Of a DNA stretch of 59,556 nucleotides, positions 2,852 to 49,874 are shown one piece after another. The notes beneath the pieces were generated by a model. It was given only the letters and a program-made list of their open reading frames with translations. It searched no databases and was not told the DNA's origin. The translations under genes were made by a program, and so were the position numbers. Each line of letters starts with the position of its first letter. Position 1 is the stretch's first letter. Where the stretch lies: positions 24,245 to 83,800 of the forward strand of contig PAQK01000010.1 of NCBI GenBank assembly GCA_002709665.1, in the 5' to 3' direction. This DNA is from Gemmatimonadota bacterium (GTDB lineage Bacteria; Latescibacterota; UBA2968; GCA-2709665).

Positions 2852-4030
2852 ATGAAAATCCTAATCGCCAATGTGGGCAGTACATCATTCAAGTACAAGC
2901 TGCTTGAAATGCCCGAGGAAACCACATTGGCTGAAGGTCGAATCGAGCGAATTGGTGATGAAGAGGCCCCGGTCGAGCATCGAATAGGTGAGCAACTTTT
3001 TGTGAAGACCTGTCGGATGCCGGACTATCCTTCCGCAATCAAGGAGGTGATGACGAGCCTCTCAGATCTCATCACACAGCCGGCTGACCTTGATGCGGTG
3101 GGCTTCAAAACGGTACATCTTCGTGGTGAACCTGGCACCTATCTACTCAATGAGGATACGCTTCAGCGGATGGCCGACTACAATGATCTGGCCCCCGCCC
3201 ACAACCCTCCATATATCCAGGCGATTCGGATCTTTCACGAATTGTACCCGGATCTCCCACTGATCGGCCTCTTCGAGACGGCTTTCCACACAACCATTCC
3301 GGACTACGCTTATACCTACGGTTTGCCCTACGAGTGGCAGGAGCAATACGGTGTGCGCAAATACGGATTCCACGGGGCGTCCCACCGATATGTCTCACAA
3401 AGGGTACCCGAATTGATCGATACGCCTGTTGCAGGATTCAAACTGGTCTCCTGTCATCTAGGTGGAAGCGCGTCTCTGTGCGCCATTGTGGATGGATGCT
3501 CAATCGATACAACTATGGGGTTCTCCGCGCAAGACGGGCTCCTGAACAGTACCAGAAACGGTTCCATAGACCCATTCATCATACCCTTTATGATGGACAG
3601 GGAAAGGTTTGCTACATCTGACATCCGCGAAATCCTATCCAAGAAGAGTGGATTGCTGGGTATTTCAGGACTCAGCGGAGACATGCGAGATCTCCAGGAG
3701 GCTGCGCAAAAGGGACATAGACGAGCAAAACTGGCAGTGGATGCGTTCTGTTATGGCGTAAAGACGCAGATCGCTGCTATGGCCGCTGCGATGGGCGGGG
3801 TAGATGCCATCGCCTTCGCCGGCGGCATTGGCGAACGAGGTGCCGACGTCCGTATGCAAGTTTCCAAAGGCCTCGAGTTCCTGGGCGTTTGTATTGACGC
3901 AACGCTCAACCAACAGGGACCTCCGGAACGTGTGATATCGCTACCAGATCCCCCTGTAGATGTGGTTATTGTACAAACAAATGAGGAGATTATAGTCGCC
4001 CGAGAAACAGCCCGTTTCCTTCAGGCCTGA
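2852..4030 (+). CDS. ackA: Acetate kinase
   Basis: MKILIANVGSTSFKYKL.., FHGASHRYV, SCHLGGSASLCAI and FAGGIGE are canonical acetate/propionate kinase motifs. Length is 392 aa. Confidence 0.9.
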   Translation: MKILIANVGSTSFKYKLLEMPEETTLAEGRIERIGDEEAPVEHRIGEQLFVKTCRMPDYPSAIKEVMTSLSDLITQPADLDAVGFKTVHLRGEPGTYLLNEDTLQRMADYNDLAPAHNPPYIQAIRIFHELYPDLPLIGLFETAFHTTIPDYAYTYGLPYEWQEQYGVRKYGFHGASHRYVSQRVPELIDTPVAGFKLVSCHLGGSASLCAIVDGCSIDTTMGFSAQDGLLNSTRNGSIDPFIIPFMMDRERFATSDIREILSKKSGLLGISGLSGDMRDLQEAAQKGHRRAKLAVDAFCYGVKTQIAAMAAAMGGVDAIAFAGGIGERGADVRMQVSKGLEFLGVCIDATLNQQGPPERVISLPDPPVDVVIVQTNEEIIVARETARFLQA

Positions 4031-4043
4031 GGAGTTAACCTCA

Positions 4044-5492
4044 ATGTCTGTGCTCTCCATTCTGCTATTCACATTCCTCCGCTTCTTTACCCCCTCCACC
4101 CTTACTGCCTTCGACCGCGAACTCTGGACAACCTTCGCCAATATGAATGAAGTTACCGCGATTGCCGAGGGTGACACTCACATCTACATTGGAACCACCC
4201 GGGGCATCCGGCGATATGACCGGTATGCCAATCGCTGGATCTCCCCACTCACAACGCTCGACGGTCTTCCACACAACCGCATAAGAGATTTGGCCTATGA
4301 CCCTGCTACGGGTGATCTTTGGGTCGATACACATGCCGGCGAAGTGGTTTGGCTCACCCGCTTGGAATCCATTTCCCTCTTTGTTGAGAAGCCACCACCA
4401 CCTCATCCTCATCTCACCGTACCACCATTGTACTTGCCATTCGGATATCATCTGGATGCACCCAACTGGATCCGTGGAAATCGGAATTCCTATGCAATTA
4501 CTGATATCCATATAGATACGTGGCGGATCCTGTGGCTAGGCACATATGGCCTGGGCGTTGGCCGGGCGGATATGCGAACGGAGGAGTTGGAATTCCACAG
4601 ATTTGGACCCTTGGACGAAAACATAAAGGCAATGGCCCTGGATGGGGAGACCATCTGGTTCGGAGGTGGTCAATCTCAATCCTCCGCCTCCCGGGGCATT
4701 TCACGATACCATACAGGAACAGAGGCCTGGACCTATTTCGAGTCGGAAAACACATTCGAAATTCACAATATCAAGGTATCCACGATATTACCGGACAGTA
4801 CCGATGTGTGGTTTGGTACACCTGAGGGCCTTGTTCGGTTTAAAAGGAAGACCAACCGATGGCTTACTTATAGAATCTCCAGACGAAATTGGGGGCATGT
4901 TACCGCTCTTGCCAGAACACCCAACAGAATCTGGATTGGAACCCTCGACGGCCTTGCGGTTTATGACCCGGGAGTCGACTCAATCAGGACTGTGGGAGGC
5001 AGCGAACGGTTTACCATTTATGATCTTGCCGTTGGACCTCGAAATGTCTGGGCTGGAACCGAATTTGGAATGTTCAATTGCCCATTGGATGATGTGACCT
5101 GGACTCCGGTTCAAGATGACCTGGTAAGAATGCCCGTAAATGGTTTATTCGCCGATTCATCGGGCGTTTGGGCAACCCTCGAATCCCCATCCGCTTTGGT
5201 TCACCTGCCTGCATCGGGCGGCAATTGGCAGCGGTATCCTTTCTCGGAGGTCAGTGGTAATCGCCAGGTCGGAATGGACGCAGACTCCGCTGCTGTATGG
5301 CTGGCTACTGATATGGGCGCGTTCAGGTTCGACATCCGCAGGCAACAGTTCCGAAGGTATCTCCCCTCGGATGGCCTTGTGGACGAAAACGTGAATTCCG
5401 TTCTGCTACAAGATGGGTTTGTTTGGTTCGGAACCTCCATTGGGGCTTCAAGATACCGTTGGGAATTGGATTTCTTTGACTCAAATCATTGA
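4044..5492 (+). CDS. Beta-propeller protein with two-component-regulator-propeller (Reg_prop)-like repeats, N-terminal hydrophobic segment
   Basis: Repeated ..W(F/I/V)GT..GL..(Y/F).. blades occur (IYIGTTRGIRRYD, LWLGTYGLGV, VWFGTPEGLVRF, IWIGTLDGLAVYD, VWAGTEFGMF, VWLATDMGAFRF, VWFGTSIGASRY). GAGGAG lies 9 nt upstream of the ATG. The start is only 13 nt after ackA. Confidence 0.6.
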   Translation: MSVLSILLFTFLRFFTPSTLTAFDRELWTTFANMNEVTAIAEGDTHIYIGTTRGIRRYDRYANRWISPLTTLDGLPHNRIRDLAYDPATGDLWVDTHAGEVVWLTRLESISLFVEKPPPPHPHLTVPPLYLPFGYHLDAPNWIRGNRNSYAITDIHIDTWRILWLGTYGLGVGRADMRTEELEFHRFGPLDENIKAMALDGETIWFGGGQSQSSASRGISRYHTGTEAWTYFESENTFEIHNIKVSTILPDSTDVWFGTPEGLVRFKRKTNRWLTYRISRRNWGHVTALARTPNRIWIGTLDGLAVYDPGVDSIRTVGGSERFTIYDLAVGPRNVWAGTEFGMFNCPLDDVTWTPVQDDLVRMPVNGLFADSSGVWATLESPSALVHLPASGGNWQRYPFSEVSGNRQVGMDADSAAVWLATDMGAFRFDIRRQQFRRYLPSDGLVDENVNSVLLQDGFVWFGTSIGASRYRWELDFFDSNH

Positions 5493-5668
5493 TATAAATG
5501 AATTAAGGTGAATAATACGTTCAGTAGTGATTTAAAAAGTGCGTGACAGAGGCCGCCCTTTTTGTTATCTTTCGATTTGTTCGCCCCTTACGTGATGGCC
5601 TGAAGTCCAACTCCCGAATTGGTCATTATGATTTCCCCTTTGCTCCCCTACAAATCGATTTTTAAATG

Positions 5669-6550: not shown

Positions 6551-7969
6551 ATGGGCAGAGCGGGTCCAGTCCGGTTGGCAAAAAGATTTCCAATGTCCAT
6601 GATATTCTTGGGATTGAGCCTGATTTCCATCAATCCAGTCGTGGCCTCGGAGAGAAAGAGCCCATTTCCTGAAGTTGCAACCAGTGTCCGATCAACAGTC
6701 GTTAGTATTTCATCAAGTACCGCTAGAGGCAGTAGAATCCCCTGGGCCAAATCCCGACGGAGTCCATCCGCTCATCGGTTTGGTTCCGGATTCATACTGG
6801 ATGCCGACGGTCACATCCTCACCAACAATCACGTTGTAGATGAGGCGTTCGGGATTCAGGTTGCACTTTCGGATGGAACCGAGTTTCCAGCGGAGATTAT
6901 CGGACAGGACCCTGATACCGATCTTGCGCTGATAAAGCTGAAACTCAACCGTCCGATCGCACAGAGTCGCATCGCTAATCTGGGCTCTTCCGACTCTGTT
7001 TCAGTTGGCGATTGGGTTATGGCTGTTGGTAGTCCATTTGGCTTTCACCACACTGTAAGTGTGGGTGTAATCAGCGCGAAGGGCAGGCATCTTGACCGGA
7101 TAGAGGGTGAGGACCTCCCGCCCTCCTACCAGGATTTTCTTCAAACGGACGCTTCCATAAATCCGGGCAACAGCGGTGGGCCGTTGGTAGATCTTGAGGG
7201 AAGCGTTGTAGGAATCAATACAGCCTACAACCCTGGCGGTGCTGGAATTGGGTTCGCGATTCCGATCGATTTGGCGAAGGATGTTGCCGAAGAACTATTG
7301 CACCACGGCGAAATAGTAAGAGGATATCTTGGCGTCCACCCTCAAGATTTGACCCCGGACCTTGCAGAAGCACTTGGTAGAGATGTACCGACAGGGGTAC
7401 TCGTTGCCGAGATAGAACCAGGAAGCCCCGCAGAGAAGGGTGAATTAAGGCGGGGAGATTTGATTCTGAGGCTCGGCGGGCATCCGGTGACCGAAGGCGC
7501 CGATTTTCTGAAACTGGTTGCTGATTTGGTGCCGGAGACATCCGTAGATATTGAAGTATTGCGGGATAATTCAGTTTTAAACCTGCTCGTGAAACCAGGC
7601 AGGCGTATCTCCAGTACCGGTCGTGAACCACCTCCAGTGGCAACCAGTGCCGACTGGCCCGGGTTGGAGGTTGGGAACCGATGGGATCTTGAGAGCCGCC
7701 GTCTCAAGGTGCCAAAGTCGGGACAAGGTGTTGTCGTTACCTACGTGGCTCCTGGTGGCCCTGCCGACAAAAAAGAAATAGAAAGGGGTGATGTCATCCT
7801 GGAAATAGGTGACACCGCCATTTGGAACGTTCGTGATTACCAGACATTGATCGAAAAGGTGCAAGACCACGCCAAACCTACCCTCTTCCTCGTCCTTAAA
7901 AGGAGTGAGGGACACACGTGGTACGTCGCCATTCGGCAAAACGGTAACTCCTCTTCAGTCACACACTGA
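6551..7969 (+). CDS. Periplasmic serine endoprotease, HtrA/DegP/DegQ family (two PDZ domains)
   Basis: The catalytic triad contexts are intact: TNNHVV, DTDLALIKL, GNSGGPLVD. Two PDZ-like segments follow (GYLGV.., GVVVTYVAPGGPA..), and the N-terminus is signal-like. Confidence 0.9.
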   Translation: MGRAGPVRLAKRFPMSMIFLGLSLISINPVVASERKSPFPEVATSVRSTVVSISSSTARGSRIPWAKSRRSPSAHRFGSGFILDADGHILTNNHVVDEAFGIQVALSDGTEFPAEIIGQDPDTDLALIKLKLNRPIAQSRIANLGSSDSVSVGDWVMAVGSPFGFHHTVSVGVISAKGRHLDRIEGEDLPPSYQDFLQTDASINPGNSGGPLVDLEGSVVGINTAYNPGGAGIGFAIPIDLAKDVAEELLHHGEIVRGYLGVHPQDLTPDLAEALGRDVPTGVLVAEIEPGSPAEKGELRRGDLILRLGGHPVTEGADFLKLVADLVPETSVDIEVLRDNSVLNLLVKPGRRISSTGREPPPVATSADWPGLEVGNRWDLESRRLKVPKSGQGVVVTYVAPGGPADKKEIERGDVILEIGDTAIWNVRDYQTLIEKVQDHAKPTLFLVLKRSEGHTWYVAIRQNGNSSSVTH

Positions 7970-45996: not shown

Positions 45997-46026
45997 TTGA
46001 CAGGACCCTGGCACACAGCCTATTTT
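45997..46026 (+). promoter_or_regulatory. Sigma-70-like promoter candidate for the GT2 gene (TTGACA-18-TATTTT)
   Basis: TTGACA at 45997-46002, 18-nt spacer, TATTTT at 46021-46026. It overlaps the track's TTG 46025 start, which argues for a downstream start. Confidence 0.35.
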
Positions 46027-46087
46027 GATCTGCAATCTAGTCTTTACCGGCACCACAATATCGTCTCTGTCAACCAAGAGCATTTAT

Positions 46088-47107
46088 TTGGATCCAGCAA
46101 TTTCGTTTGTCCTTCCCGTCCACAACGCAGAGAAAACGCTCGGACAGGCCATACAAAGTATCCTGTGTCAAAGATACACATCGTTCGAGGTAATCGCCGT
46201 CGACGACGGGTCTACGGATGCAACACCCGCTATTCTCCGAACCTATTCTGCAAGAGACCCACGCATACGACCCGTATTCTGCCAGAAAAACGGGCTGATT
46301 GAAACACTGAACAAGGGTCTGAGTCTCTCAAAAGGAACTTTTGTGGCTAGAATGGATGCCGACGATATCTGCCACCCGGATCGTATCGGCATCCAACTCC
46401 AGTTTATGATGCGCAATCCTGAAATTTCAGTCTTGGGGACTCAGATCCGATGCTTCCCACTTCCTGACGTAGGCGAGGGCTTCCGAATTTATGAAAGCTG
46501 GATCAACGCTCTACTTTCTCCCGGGGATATTGGAAGGGAAATATTCATCGAGAGTCCTCTGGTTCACCCAACGGCATTTATCAGAAAATCAGCTCTGGAT
46601 GAGGTGGGAGGATATGAAGACAACGGTTGGGCCGAGGACTACGACCTCTGGCTGAGACTGTATACAAATCACAAGCAGTTTGCGAAGATACCCAGAATCC
46701 TTTTTTCCTGGCGAGAAGGAAGAGACAGACTCACAAGAACTGACTCCAGATATTCCGTAGAGAACTTCCTGAAGGCCAAAGCACATTACCTGAAGCTGGG
46801 TCCACTAAAAAAGTCACCAAATGTCATCATATGGGGAGCAGGACAGATTGGCCGGCGAATCTCCAAGCATCTTCTGCGGGAGGGTGTCACTTTAAACACG
46901 TTTGTCGACATCGACCCAAAAAAAATCGGCAGGTCCAGGAGAGGCGCACCCATAGTTTCACCAGATGAATTGCCGTCAGTCTGGCGGGCGGCAGGCCGAC
47001 CTCTCGTGCTAGCAGCAGTGCCATCTCGAGGGGCTCGGGAACTCATACGCAACCACTTGAATCGATTGGGTCTGAAAGAAGGGGAGCACTTTATCTGTGT
47101 GGCATGA
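46088..47107 (+). CDS. Family 2 glycosyltransferase fused to a C-terminal Rossmann-like (GxGxxG) domain
   Basis: ISFVLPVHNAEKTL, VIAVDDGSTDAT and RMDADD are GT-A motifs. The C-terminal part has VIIWGAGQIGRRISKHLL..FVDIDPKK. The ORF is open from 46025. I prefer TTG 46088 (MDPAISFVLPV..), but the start is uncertain. Confidence 0.7.
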   Translation: MDPAISFVLPVHNAEKTLGQAIQSILCQRYTSFEVIAVDDGSTDATPAILRTYSARDPRIRPVFCQKNGLIETLNKGLSLSKGTFVARMDADDICHPDRIGIQLQFMMRNPEISVLGTQIRCFPLPDVGEGFRIYESWINALLSPGDIGREIFIESPLVHPTAFIRKSALDEVGGYEDNGWAEDYDLWLRLYTNHKQFAKIPRILFSWREGRDRLTRTDSRYSVENFLKAKAHYLKLGPLKKSPNVIIWGAGQIGRRISKHLLREGVTLNTFVDIDPKKIGRSRRGAPIVSPDELPSVWRAAGRPLVLAAVPSRGARELIRNHLNRLGLKEGEHFICVA

Positions 47108-47156: not shown

Positions 47157-47735
47157 ATGGTGGATGGTTTCTTCGCGCGTCTTTTCCGGAAACCTGCTGA
47201 GCCTGCGCCGCCTCAGTTGGAAATGCTCAGAAACAACCTTGAGAATCTCCCTGAAATCGTTGTGCCTAAGGGTTACAAACTCCGGTCCTATCACCCAGGG
47301 GATGAGGATGCCTGGTGTCGGATCATGGAGGGTAACGTAGGTAGAGAGTGGACTCCGGGAAAATGCCGAGAAAAGCTCACCGAAGATCCACGGTTCTCAT
47401 CTGAGAGTCTCTTTTTCGCGACCCTTGAAGGAGAACCGGTTGCCAGCGCCTGCGCCTGGACCAAATTGGTAGAGGAACGTGTGACAGGTGAGGTCCACAT
47501 GGTCGCCGTCCTTGAGAATCACCGAGGAAAGCGGCTGGGTCATCTGGTCAACAGTGCCGTCCTTCACCGTCTGAAGGAACTTGGTTTTCAAAAAGCACAT
47601 CTACTCAGCGATGATTGGCGAATCCCTGCAATTAAAAGCTATCTCACCGCAGGTTTTCATCCCCTCAATACGCACGAAAGCCACCCACAGCGATGGGAAA
47701 AGATCTTCGATCAACTGGGTATCTCCGGAAATTGA
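47157..47735 (+). CDS. GNAT-family N-acetyltransferase
   Basis: VAVLENHRGKRLGHLV (the R/QxxGxG/A acetyl-CoA motif) occurs in a ~190-aa protein. Confidence 0.75.
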   Translation: MVDGFFARLFRKPAEPAPPQLEMLRNNLENLPEIVVPKGYKLRSYHPGDEDAWCRIMEGNVGREWTPGKCREKLTEDPRFSSESLFFATLEGEPVASACAWTKLVEERVTGEVHMVAVLENHRGKRLGHLVNSAVLHRLKELGFQKAHLLSDDWRIPAIKSYLTAGFHPLNTHESHPQRWEKIFDQLGISGN

Positions 47736-47739
47736 ACAC

Positions 47740-48447
47740 CTACGCAAGCAATTCTGTATAGCCAAACCCTATGGCCTTCTTGACTCGTTCCAGCGTGTGC
47801 TGACCTTGGACTCTTGCTTCTGAACACCCAAGATTCAGGACGTCTCCGACAAGACCGGGCACTTTCTCCAGCTGCTGGCGCCTGGACTCGAATTCTTCTC
47901 CCAGCACACAATTGCAATCGCCTATTCCGGTGTAAATCGACGTAGGCTTGTGAAAGACATCCCCAAACCTTTCATTAAATTGTCCCGCCAGGCCTTGAGC
48001 CAGCAGAATACGATCCTCTTGATCGACCCCAACAGGTACGAGGGTGGGCCCGAACATCAGTATATACGCTGCCTGGAACAGAGAGTAACCAAGGTGCCCA
48101 TAAGTAGTGTCATCCAAACTGTCCTTCCCCAACAGCCTTTTAACCTGAACAAGGTTACTCAAGATGGATGCGAGTTCAGCAAGTTGTGGAACCTGGGATT
48201 GTAGGAAGCAAATACCACGCTCCAAATTGAAACCTAGCGCCAAAGCATCCAGAACCATTTCGGTGACACTGTCTTCGATATTTCGCCTAACGTAACTGCC
48301 TGATTTGAGTGTATGGTAGTCTGCTATCATCAGTAAGCAAGTATGGTCATTCTGAAGTGAGATAAGCCTACCCAGCGGGTTCGCGTAATCTTGAATGAAT
48401 GACCCAGCCGCGGGTTTAAGCCCGGTATGTGCAATTTGCCTTTTCAT
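47740..48447 (-). CDS. Truncated, catalytically degenerate tryptophanyl-tRNA synthetase paralog (TrpRS-fold pseudo-enzyme, 235 aa)
   Basis: It aligns by eye with the adjacent TrpRS: IADYHTL / IADLHTL, FLQSQV / YLQSAV, GYSLFQAAYILM / GYPVLQAADILM, LVPVGVDQED / LVPVGKDNEA, TLERVKKAIGF / TLKEVKKAMGL. HIGH is replaced by SFIQDY and KMSKS is absent. About 100 residues of the C-terminal domain are missing. It has its own GGAGAT SD and ATG. Confidence 0.75.
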   Translation of the reverse strand: MKRQIAHTGLKPAAGSFIQDYANPLGRLISLQNDHTCLLMIADYHTLKSGSYVRRNIEDSVTEMVLDALALGFNLERGICFLQSQVPQLAELASILSNLVQVKRLLGKDSLDDTTYGHLGYSLFQAAYILMFGPTLVPVGVDQEDRILLAQGLAGQFNERFGDVFHKPTSIYTGIGDCNCVLGEEFESRRQQLEKVPGLVGDVLNLGCSEARVQGQHTLERVKKAIGFGYTELLA

Positions 48448-48483
48448 GATTTCATCTCCGAAGAAGTGTTGTGGAGAATTTTC

Positions 48484-48524
48484 AAAAGAAAAAAGCCGCT
48501 GATCACCTTCCGGCGATCAGCGGC
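48484..48524 (-). terminator. Strong intrinsic terminator between trpS and the TrpRS paralog (attenuator candidate)
   Basis: On the minus strand, a perfect 10-bp stem GCCGCTGATC / GATCAGCGGC with a 10-nt loop is followed by TTTTTTCTTTT. It ends 36 nt before the paralog ATG. Confidence 0.8.
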
Positions 48525-48610
48525 TCAGTAGCACGCCAACGACGACCCGGTGTTGGCCATACCTCACCCCTTGACCAAATCCACCAAGCCCTTGTCCTAA
48601 AGGCACACAT
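48503..48610 (-). CDS. Candidate regulatory leader peptide 2 (35 aa, 5 Trp: MCAFRTRAWWIWSRGEVWPTPGRRWRATEPLIAGR)
   Basis: AAAGGAA lies 6 nt upstream of ATG 48610. Trp codons are at positions 9, 10, 12, 18 and 25. The TGA lies in the loop of the 48484-48524 terminator. The ORF is below the track's size cutoff. Confidence 0.55.
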   Translation of the reverse strand: MCAFRTRAWWIWSRGEVWPTPGRRWRATEPLIAGR

Positions 48611-48657
48611 CCAAATTCCTTTATATTCAAACGTCATTGTAACCTCGGTTCTAACCC

Positions 48658-49719
48658 CTATTCTTGGTTTTCCCTCTTTCTGTCTCTGGCTCTACGAGAA
48701 ATGCGATTCCATATTCCCGTCAAACCCATCGCCTTCTTCACTTCCTTCAGCGTCTCGTCCGCTATTTCTACGGCACGCAAGGTTCCCTCGTAGAGCACCT
48801 CCTCAACATATCCCTTGTCCTCCTCGAACTGTCTTCGACGATCTCTGATCGGATCCAGAAACGTGTTAAGGGCTGCAGTCAACTTTGCCTTCACTTCCAC
48901 ATCGCCCACTTTCCCTTCCCGGTATCTGGTCTTGAGATCTTCCACCTCATCCCTGTTCGGGTTAAACGCGTCGTGATAGATGAAAACTGGATTTCCCTCG
49001 ACCTTTCCAGGGATGTCAGCCCTCGTCCGATTAGGATCAGTAAACATTCCCCGAACACGCTTCTCGATGGTCTTAGCGTCATCTGAAAGAAGGATGCAAT
49101 TGTCCAGGCTCTTGCTCATTTTTGCCTGACCATCTGTCCCTACCAATGTTGGTACATCACCAATCATAGATTCCGGGATCGGGAAGACCTCTCCGTAGTA
49201 ATTATTGAATCGCCTGGCAATTTCCCGAGTGACTTCTACGTGGGCCTCATTGTCTTTCCCTACTGGGACCAGGTGGGACCTCGGCATCAGGATGTCGGCT
49301 GCCTGAAGTACAGGATAACCGACCAGTCCGAAAGGGATCGCTTCGTCATCCATATTCGCTGCCTTCGCCATATCCTTTATACTGGGCAGCCTGGCAACCC
49401 TCGGCAACGTCACCAACATCTCAAAAAACAGATTCATCTCGTAGACGGCGTGGACTGCCGACTGAAGGTAGATCGTCGATTTGGCGGGATCGATTCCAAC
49501 TGCCAGATAGTCCAATACCAGTTCCCGCGTGTTCTCTCTCAATGCCTCGATGTGTACCTTCTCCGGTCGGGTGGTAAGCGTATGCAGGTCAGCGATTAGG
49601 AAATAACACTCATACTCATCCTGAAGGCGGAGCCGATTCTGAAGCGAACCGACATAGTGACCCAGATGCAGCCGACCAGTCGGTCGGTCGCCTGTCAATA
49701 TTCTCTTCTTCTCACTCAT
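48658..49719 (-). CDS. trpS: Tryptophan--tRNA ligase
   Basis: HIGH motif (TGRLHLGHY), KMSKS, GYPVLQAADIL and VPVGKD are all present. ATG 49719 (MSEKKRILTG..) has AAGGAG 7 nt upstream; the track start at 49740 is a TTG. Confidence 0.92.
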   Translation of the reverse strand: MSEKKRILTGDRPTGRLHLGHYVGSLQNRLRLQDEYECYFLIADLHTLTTRPEKVHIEALRENTRELVLDYLAVGIDPAKSTIYLQSAVHAVYEMNLFFEMLVTLPRVARLPSIKDMAKAANMDDEAIPFGLVGYPVLQAADILMPRSHLVPVGKDNEAHVEVTREIARRFNNYYGEVFPIPESMIGDVPTLVGTDGQAKMSKSLDNCILLSDDAKTIEKRVRGMFTDPNRTRADIPGKVEGNPVFIYHDAFNPNRDEVEDLKTRYREGKVGDVEVKAKLTAALNTFLDPIRDRRRQFEEDKGYVEEVLYEGTLRAVEIADETLKEVKKAMGLTGIWNRISRRARDRKRENQE

Positions 49720-49742
49720 TTGTATGCTCCTTCTCGACAATG

Positions 49743-49772
49743 AAAAAACCCCTGCGGTCTGGCCGGCAGGGG
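49743..49772 (-). terminator. Intrinsic terminator in the trpS leader (attenuator candidate)
   Basis: On the minus strand, CCCCTGC-N10-GCAGGGG is followed by TTTTTT, ending 23 nt upstream of the trpS ATG. Confidence 0.75.
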
Positions 49773-49802: not shown

Positions 49803-49874
49803 TCAGTGCACGGTAAGCCAACCGGTATGATGTCGATCATACCACCAACTGCTCCGAAACCAACCGTGTACCAT
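49803..49874 (-). CDS. Candidate regulatory leader peptide 1 (23 aa, 4 Trp: MVHGWFRSSWWYDRHHTGWLTVH)
   Basis: AAGGAG lies 8 nt upstream of ATG 49874. Trp codons are at positions 5, 10, 11 and 19. An 8-bp hairpin (49824-49843) starts within the tandem Trp codons. The ORF is below the track's size cutoff. Confidence 0.6.
   Translation of the reverse strand: MVHGWFRSSWWYDRHHTGWLTVH

Follow-up and report, generated by a model that had tools for sequence, protein, structure and literature searches.

Truncated or catalytically dead paralogs of aminoacyl-tRNA synthetases (aaRSs), such as HisZ, YadB/GluQRS and the cyclodipeptide synthases (CDPSs), have each revealed unexpected biology. Among duplicated aaRSs, a 2022 review describes TrpRS II and TrpRS1 as duplicated tryptophanyl-tRNA synthetases (TrpRSs) and has no TrpRS entry among the aaRS-like proteins (PMC9437257); no TrpRS-derived pseudo-synthetase or truncated bacterial TrpRS-like protein was found in the literature searched. 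The Fe-S motif published for TrpRS is C-x(21-24)-C-x6-C-x2-C, and in organisms with several TrpRS genes it is present in one only (PMC2954223). Here, a gene encoding a 235-amino-acid (aa) TrpRS-like protein (the mini-TrpRS, or mini) was analysed in a 59,556-nucleotide (nt) stretch of DNA (the window) from a genome labelled Gemmatimonadota bacterium and placed in Latescibacterota by the GTDB (GenBank assembly GCA_002709665.1, contig PAQK01000010.1, positions 24,245 to 83,800 of the forward strand).

Comparison with related loci indicated that the mini is the eroded ortholog of a second, Cys4-motif (Fe-S-type) TrpRS lineage of Latescibacterota, and not a copy of the neighbouring trpS gene. At the level of codon substitution, the catalytically dead form was shown to be maintained by purifying selection.

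The mini-TrpRS gene and its parent lineage

The gene and its translation signal were located as follows:

47740..48447 (-): mini-TrpRS open reading frame (ORF), 235 aa, ATG start, uninterrupted
48454..48459 (-): Shine-Dalgarno (SD) sequence GGAGAT, 6 nt 5' of the mini ATG, read from the sequence

At the SD position, GGAGA or AAGGAG is kept in orthologous loci. The encoded protein consists of a Rossmann core with a CP1 insertion, a short linker and a C-terminal helix. PF00579 (tRNA-synt_1b) matched mini residues 7-173 (profile positions 9-187 of 292, E 6e-20), and an AlphaFold2 model built from a 15-sequence alignment (mean predicted local distance difference test score 79.5, predicted TM-score 0.79) matched bacterial TrpRS structures in Foldseek with query-normalised TM-scores of 0.80-0.85; by both measures, class Ic Rossmann-fold core homology is present and the TrpRS fold is retained. 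In BLASTP, the mini was 31% identical to the neighbouring trpS product over 226 columns (E 3e-25), and the C-terminal helix gave a separate local match to the same product (41% over 41 residues).

Residue positions are given in B. stearothermophilus TrpRS numbering. In the alignments, the mini was without HIGH, KMSKS, the Cys4 segment (C-x(21-24)-C-x6-C-x2-C) and most of the anticodon-binding domain. The HIGH site reads AAGSFIQDY, where relatives have TGRLHLGHY. The 10-residue mobile loop bearing Lys111 is deleted, and so are the KMSKS loop (K192-S196 are gap columns in the window mini) and about 87 residues after it, with the C-terminal helix in frame; from the end of the Pfam match and the alignment, this last helix alone is left of the anticodon-binding helical domain. 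His150 is replaced by Arg and Asp132, the indole-contacting Asp of QAADIL, by Tyr. Against TIGR00233, the NCBI trpS equivalog, the mini scored 102.6 bits (cut-off 176.75). Judged by HIGH, KMSKS, the anticodon domain and the equivalog score, the mini does not qualify as a tryptophan--tRNA ligase (EC 6.1.1.2).

The closest full-length relatives of the mini are 332-aa TrpRSs, 45-47% identical over the shared parts. These proteins carry TGRxHLGHY, KMGKS, QAADIL and GPDQ, together with C-x20-C-x6-C-x2-C in the anticodon-binding domain, and their top matches in the PDB included 2g36, the [4Fe-4S] TrpRS of T. maritima (E 2e-83), 2a4m, TrpRS II of D. radiodurans (E 1e-80), and 6ncr, a Chlamydia TrpRS. 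Two subfamily blocks, CFLQSQVPQLAE and LG.S.AR..GQRTLE.VK.A.G, are common to the mini and the 332-aa TrpRS. An origin of the mini as a tandem duplicate of its neighbour was rejected on the 31% identity to that neighbour versus 45-47% to the 332-aa lineage, and on the shared subfamily motifs. Because the mini and the 332-aa TrpRS take the same locus slot in a series of four states (listed below), they were regarded as positional orthologs.

An earlier note, made by eye from the letters of the window, had reported an intact 235-codon ORF with an ATG and the SD GGAGAT, TrpRS core homology to the neighbour at a quarter to a third identity, loss of HIGH and KMSKS, and deletion of most of the anticodon domain. 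The sequence and the matches above bore these points out, and careful alignment revealed no hidden equivalents of HIGH or KMSKS. The change of the QAADIL Asp to Tyr, which the note had also listed, holds for the window copy and its 98% identical twin P0001, and not as a feature of the family (L046 has Ala, others Asp). The note's description of the mini as a paralog of the neighbouring trpS had to be given up, the nearest lineage being the 332-aa TrpRS found at the same locus in relatives.

Across the family, the ATP-related positions (HIGH, His150, Asp146 and KMSKS) are varied or lost in the old, HIGH-less minis. Gln147 and the Gln at the Met129 position never vary; Tyr125 survives in 8 of the 11 old minis, Asp132 in all minis except the window mini and P0001 (Tyr) and L046 (Ala), and the Phe5-equivalent Leu in all except the window mini (His). 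In all forms, conservation is strongest at CFLQSQVPQLAE, a block in the CP1 region. Together, these features suggest a protein that is folded, probably dimeric and still equipped with the amino-acid pocket; in the window copy the pocket appears remodelled.

In-frame deletions and purifying selection across related loci

The genome scan that located related loci relied on DNA patterns and tblastn instead of ORF calls, so out-of-frame remnants would have shown up. The slot of the TrpRS gene lies between a DCC1-like gene and a convergent pair of GNAT acetyltransferase and family-2 glycosyltransferase (GT2) genes. In the window, the genes adjoining the mini are:

48658..49719 (-): full-length trpS, 353 aa (trpS-353), from ATG MSEKK; the mechanical ORF reaches TTG at 49740
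47157..47735 (+): GNAT acetyltransferase gene, convergent, the syntenic anchor in all four locus states

The four states of the slot are:

State A: trpS-353, in some loci preceded by hemB, then a degenerate mini of 234-308 aa (window, L001/L014, L004/L021, L008/L036, L010, L011, L027, L040, L044-L046)
State B: a 245-248-aa mini retaining HIGH, with no other trpS within 6 kb (L009, L015-L020, L022-L026)
State C: the 332-aa TrpRS alone (L005, L006 and 14 species representatives), with no other trpS within +-6 to 8 kb
State D: trpS-353 directly followed by GNAT, without a mini (L094-L097)

The mini form was present in 19 of the 33 species-level genomes that carry the second TrpRS lineage, and in all 19 species-level minis the frame is open and reads into the C-terminal helix in phase (L026 is cut by the contig end). 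The order hemB-trpS-mini-GNAT is maintained across genomes whose minis are merely 41-61% identical. A search of 1.84 billion representative proteins gave only seven relatives at E < 1e-30, and further divergent minis of 220-238 aa (P0241, P0243, P0336) were found in the same search. By record labels, family members belong to Latescibacterota with few exceptions, namely L030, L042 and L044/L045 (Gemmatimonas or Gemmatimonadota) and L032 ('bacterium' only). L044 and L045 are sponge-type metagenome-assembled genomes labelled Gemmatimonadota, with the same trpS-353 and mini tandem and leader; mis-binning, mis-classification or transfer of the cassette as a whole could account for this.

The deletion junctions of the minis are of at least five different kinds, all in frame. 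In the window clade the junction reads ..SIYTG / IGDCNCVLGEEFESRR.., and the L027/L036/L040/L046 group has its own, at which a degenerate remnant of the KMSKS region is left. A third junction, ..GQSK-I-MTPFR.., is common to nine species representatives, and other separate junctions were found in L021, L044/L045, L015, L022 and P0009. The 248-aa mini of L016 and the 332-aa gene of L038 lie in collinear regions of about 95% nucleotide identity over 12.7 kb, save for an exact 252-base-pair deletion. In a neighbour-joining tree, old minis form long branches and young minis are interleaved with full-length forms. HIGH substitutions (YLGH, HLEH) occur in two or three of the young 245-248-aa minis and in none of the 14 full-length sequences of the site table. 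In the lineage of the window, alignment to these relatives shows that in-frame deletions and substitutions removed HIGH, the KMSKS and Lys111 loops and the Cys4/anticodon segment from the old gene.

The 245-248-aa forms (L015-L026, e.g. L016 6001-6747) have neither a KMSKS loop nor an anticodon domain. The 245-aa P0010 scores 206.7 bits against TIGR00233, over the 176.75 cut-off, and since young minis pass this cut-off, annotation pipelines would name them as working ligases, which is a practical risk.

For estimates of selection, dN/dS (omega) was calculated by the Nei-Gojobori method with 60 codon bootstraps for pairs in which both copies were already minis at the common ancestor; the comparisons are pairwise, not tree-based:

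L012-L014: dN/dS 0.134 (95% interval 0.09-0.18), dS 0.74
L011-L012: dN/dS 0.20 (95% interval 0.11-0.31), dS 1.45
L027-L036: dN/dS 0.36 (95% interval 0.25-0.51), dS 0.32
L040-L046: dN/dS 0.34 (95% interval 0.27-0.50), dS 0.42
L044-L045: dN/dS 0.38 (95% interval 0.24-0.58), dS 0.23

Among dead minis the ratio thus ranges from 0.13 to 0.38, with all bootstrap intervals below 1. The dN of the mini is about five times that of trpS-353 in the same genome pairs (0.30 vs 0.06), yet far under dS, and the mini and the adjacent GNAT gene have similar dN/dS ratios. For distant pairs, the YN00 and NG86 dS values were saturated and were not used, and the window mini differs from its twin P0001 by five synonymous and five non-synonymous changes, too few to inform. 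For the young HIGH-bearing minis omega is about 0.08; as the young species are about 95% identical, some of this divergence may be older than the deletion, should recombination have spread the allele. The value is no higher than those of full-length genes, which gave 0.18 for one bootstrapped pair (L033-L039) and 0.085-0.11 for pairs on shared columns. The catalytic elements are free to decay, and the rest of the mini is constrained. The suggestion of the earlier note that the mini is a selected pseudo-enzyme and not a recent dead duplicate is upheld by the uninterrupted homologs in many genomes (the mini is not a sole copy), by dN/dS values of 0.13-0.38 between HIGH-less minis and by the conserved leader described below.

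Trp-codon leaders, transcription and flanking genes

Upstream of the mini, a leader with the following parts was found:

48503..48610 (-): mini leader ORF MCAFRTRAWWIWSRGEVWPTPGRRWRATEPLIAGR, closed by a stop codon; an alternative in-frame upstream ATG lies at 48637
48493..48526 (-): mini leader intrinsic terminator (GAGCCGCTGATCGCC GGAA GGTGATCAGCGGCTT), from the terminator scan

Tandem Trp codons lie at 48581-48586, and the Trp-codon segment has its complement in the P-T-P codons at 48548-48556; in relatives, the Pro-rich leader codons CCACCACCG are the complement of the UGG repeat. The terminator is GC-rich, with a T-rich tail to about 48484, some 35-40 nt ahead of the mini ATG, and the stop codon of the leader ORF sits within its hairpin. 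A leader ORF and terminator are present 5' of every mini and every full-length 332-aa gene, and the peptide motif WW(W)..(R/K)GEV(W/C)PPP(G/D) and its frame are kept in all loci, each of which has an in-frame ATG and WW or WWW. Third-position synonymous changes were seen in the leader ORF among the window, L011 and L012, and because the motif is kept through such changes, coding constraint appears to act on the leader ORF. The earlier note had described this leader as dedicated to the mini: it is indeed conserved, though not newly dedicated, being inherited from the full-length ancestor, and trpS-353 has a leader of its own.

Taken together, the terminator and helix P1 are 93.8% paired over 17 diverse loci, with a covariation score of 0.263 versus 0.124 in shuffles (none of 500 shuffles reached the observed value). 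Of the five pairs for which RNAalifold listed compensatory changes, four belong to the terminator stem. The UGGUGG:CCACCR helix does not vary between loci. A candidate antiterminator, CCACC-A-CCGG pairing with CCGG-AA-GGUGG at the terminator apex, is 90% paired; in minimum free energy (MFE) folding with masked Trp codons, an antiterminator formed in L036 only. An extended antiterminator that uses the codons after WWW was rejected as unsupported (just 67% paired). A known RNA family (T-box or trp leader) was likewise rejected, there being no Rfam match at gathering thresholds and chance-level matches at E up to 10.

A second, distinct Trp-codon leader and a promoter-like site lie upstream of trpS-353:

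49743..49772 (-): terminator of the trpS-353 leader, CCCCTGCCGGCCAGACCGCAGGGGTTTTTT
49803..49874 (-): trpS-353 leader ORF MVHGWFRSSWWYDRHHTGWLTVH, closed by a stop codon
49914..49942 (-): sigma-70-like promoter TTGACA-17-TATTAT, 11/12, consensus match only

This terminator is conserved as CCCCTGCCGG..GGGGTTTTTT in the window, L001, L010, L011 and L094, and homologous WW(W)Y(D/E)..HTG.LTV peptides were found in L001, L004, L008, L010, L011 and L095; the trpS-353 leader had no Rfam match. The promoter-like site is the sole match in the region, the alignment shows both its -35 and its -10 box to be conserved, and it is a candidate start for a transcript comprising leader 1, trpS, leader 2 and the mini.

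The trpS-353 product has HIGH, KMSKS and QAADIL and no Cys4 motif, matches PF00579 (1e-78) and TIGR00233 (320 bits), and is the presumed working TrpRS of the window genome. It is 77-100% identical to many full-length TrpRSs. Proteins labelled Poribacteria, Fimbriimonadia, Chloroflexota, Gemmatimonadota and Latescibacterota are 77-85% identical to this type, and such identity across phyla suggests unusually slow evolution or recent horizontal spread.

Several further features were observed in these regions. About 200 nt before the main leader of 332/245-aa genes, a second W-rich mini-ORF (..RDWW(W)HAPVWIC, then a stop) occurs with its own terminator (L006 ~7590-7700; L009 ~2560-2660; L034 5497-5700), so that these genes have two attenuator-like units in series. 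Just 5' of the TrpRS leader of L034, four tandem near-identical genes (3819-5563) encode coiled-coil proteins of 123-152 aa, with a variable-copy 11-residue repeat REIAESRAETK and a C-terminal transmembrane helix; fragments of these genes are also present in L009, L015 and L022. In the window, the GNAT stop lies 4 nt from the mini stop, and the family-2 glycosyltransferase (46025-47107, +) has a C-terminal match to the coenzyme A-binding domain PF02629 (residues 264-342); its orthologs in L001-L003 list the same Pfam pair. No tRNA gene was found in the window.

Proposed role, rival explanations and known systems

On balance, we favour the view that the mini, a TrpRS derivative without catalytic activity, is kept by selection, acts by binding and is expressed under the control of the Trp-tRNA supply. 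Ribosomes stalled at UGG codons would free the CCACCACCGG segment, which would pair with the terminator apex and let transcription continue, and fluent translation would park the ribosome on PPP, over the Pro-codon segment, and let the terminator form. The mini would thus be made when charged tRNA-Trp is scarce; we infer this direction of control, the leader anatomy itself being observed. In the proposal the amino-acid pocket would still be there, because the Tyr125, Gln129-equivalent and Gln147 positions are kept, and the mini might serve, by analogy with HisZ, as a starvation-induced, likely dimeric ligand-binding or regulatory subunit. From the gene context of the examined loci, no partner enzyme could be inferred.

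More tentatively, the mini-TrpRSs may constitute a new family of synthetase-derived regulators. The Rossmann/CP1 core and C-terminal helix of a second TrpRS under Trp-starvation control would carry another, non-catalytic activity, and selection would therefore have stripped the KMSKS/Fe-S/anticodon module at least five independent times, leaving a starvation-induced Trp-, tRNA- or TrpRS-binding protein that tunes Trp metabolism or translation. More speculatively still, the HIGH-bearing 245-248-aa forms, which had no other trpS within 6 kb, might activate Trp as natural urzyme-like enzymes.

Several observations weigh against the proposed binding role and its control. The dN/dS values of 0.34-0.38 in two mini clades mean markedly relaxed constraint, and the mini must be dispensable, because some Latescibacterota (state D) have lost it entirely. 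The two pocket changes of the window mini (Leu5-equivalent to His, Asp132 to Tyr) weaken a Trp-binding role for that copy. In the leader, the candidate antiterminator is invariant, and so without covariation support, and is not the MFE structure in most loci; since the leader ORF runs into the terminator, control may run in the opposite direction. Finally, a consensus scan found no promoter between trpS-353 and the mini leader, so the mini probably lies behind two Trp-sensitive attenuators in series.

The mini could instead be a heterodimer partner of TrpRS-353, joined to it through a retained CP1 dimer interface, which we rate as unlikely. TrpRS works only as a dimer, whose subunits both contribute to tRNA binding (PMC10201369; PMC2954223). 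Since tRNA-Trp binds across the subunits, pairing with a protein that has no anticodon-binding domain would inactivate the dimer or retune it, and the mini would be a brake or modulator induced by starvation. The CP1 region with its CFLQSQVPQLAE block is the best conserved part of all minis, and the trpS-353 and mini genes are adjacent and probably co-transcribed; however, the two proteins share only 31% identity, and the 245-248-aa minis occur without a 353-type trpS within 6 kb.

Less probable again is a slowly decaying relic, in which the second trpS made the old gene redundant and the intact ORF has no function of its own. The locus series can be read as such a displacement (old gene only, new gene with mini, new gene only), and the roughly fivefold dN of the mini over trpS, the omega of up to 0.34-0.38 in some clades and the YLGH and HLEH substitutions in two or three young forms agree with decay. 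Decay is contradicted by the low omega, well under 1, of pairs whose common ancestor was already dead (dS 0.3-1.4), by the open frames and in-frame helices of 19 of 19 species-level minis across at least five independent junctions, and by the conservation of the leader peptide and SD.

We consider another enzymatic activity, either that of a CDPS-like aminoacyl-tRNA-dependent transferase or that of a weakly Trp-activating, urzyme-like protein, to be improbable. CDPSs, which have a TyrRS/TrpRS-like domain without the ATP motifs, use aminoacyl-tRNA (PMC3105412; PMC9437257), the amino-acid-pocket residues of the mini are partly kept, and the young forms still have HIGH at an omega of about 0.08. 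However, no conserved candidate nucleophile was found in the mini alignment, including the start of the first helix, Pfam gave PF00579 only and no CDPS family match, and His150, Asp146 and HIGH decay freely in older minis; no tailoring or biosynthetic genes lie nearby in the examined loci. The strong terminator and conserved RNA element between trpS-353 and the mini speak for a conserved RNA (the trpS 3' untranslated region and terminator, or a small RNA locus) with an incidental ORF. This reading is hardly credible, since the RNA element lies 5' of the ORF and not within it, Rfam gave nothing, and the ORF has a coding signature (omega below 1, frame kept, protein motifs conserved).

Whichever role the mini has, one phylum holds all stages of its history: the complete enzyme, young minis still bearing HIGH, old HIGH-less minis and total loss. 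These stages form a rare time series of an essential-enzyme fold becoming a pseudoenzyme, with a clear set of proteins, and the case is relevant to work that divides TrpRS into modules (urzyme, CP1 and anticodon-binding domain). The two predicted Trp-codon leader attenuators are previously undescribed and belong to an uncultured phylum.

Among known systems, the mini appears, by analogy, to resemble non-aminoacylating paralogs of synthetase origin such as HisZ, the HisRS-like regulatory subunit of ATP phosphoribosyltransferase. Like HisZ, it is an aaRS core with no anticodon domain and no predicted aminoacylation capacity that is kept by selection, and it may keep the amino-acid pocket for a regulatory role. 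Unlike HisZ, it derives from the class Ic TrpRS and not from class II HisRS, no partner enzyme is inferred for it, and it has recent, repeated origins in one phylum, through in-frame deletions internal to the gene.

The 332-aa parent is comparable to S. coelicolor TrpRS1 and D. radiodurans TrpRS II in being a second TrpRS type, and it has a Trp-codon leader and terminator; the indolmycin-resistant S. coelicolor trpRS1 is reportedly controlled by ribosome-mediated attenuation, in work by Vecchione and Sello. Those proteins are active synthetases, which the window mini, by its motifs, is not. The C-x20-C-x6-C-x2-C of the parent is at the same place in the anticodon domain as the cluster motif of the T. 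maritima [4Fe-4S] TrpRS (2g36), although the published spacing is x21-24; the cluster of the parent is predicted from this motif, and the mini is without the Cys4 segment.

CDPSs of the AlbC family share with the mini a length of about 230-300 aa, a class-Ic-like Rossmann fold and the lack of HIGH, KMSKS and an anticodon domain, but they have no detectable sequence similarity to TrpRS and their own Ser/Tyr/Glu set, whereas the mini is 45% identical to real TrpRSs and has no such residues. The TrpRS urzyme and catalytic-domain constructs of the Carter laboratory are also minimal Rossmann-core fragments from which the same anticodon-binding module was removed; urzymes keep HIGH and KMSKS and drop CP1, whereas in the mini both signatures are gone and CP1 and the C-terminal helix remain. 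With human mini-TrpRS/T2-TrpRS, an N-terminally truncated active eukaryotic enzyme of unrelated architecture, only the name is in common.

The mini leader resembles trpL-type attenuators in having a short ORF with tandem UGG codons, a downstream pairing segment and an intrinsic terminator 5' of a Trp-related gene. It differs from them in that it has no Rfam match and a candidate antiterminator only, its ORF runs into or through the terminator, and its peptide is longer and has a conserved amino-acid sequence, in which the PPP(G/D) codons complement the UGG repeat. Set beside these systems, what is unusual about the mini is its repeated independent origin, its living intermediates and the Trp-codon attenuator that it has retained.

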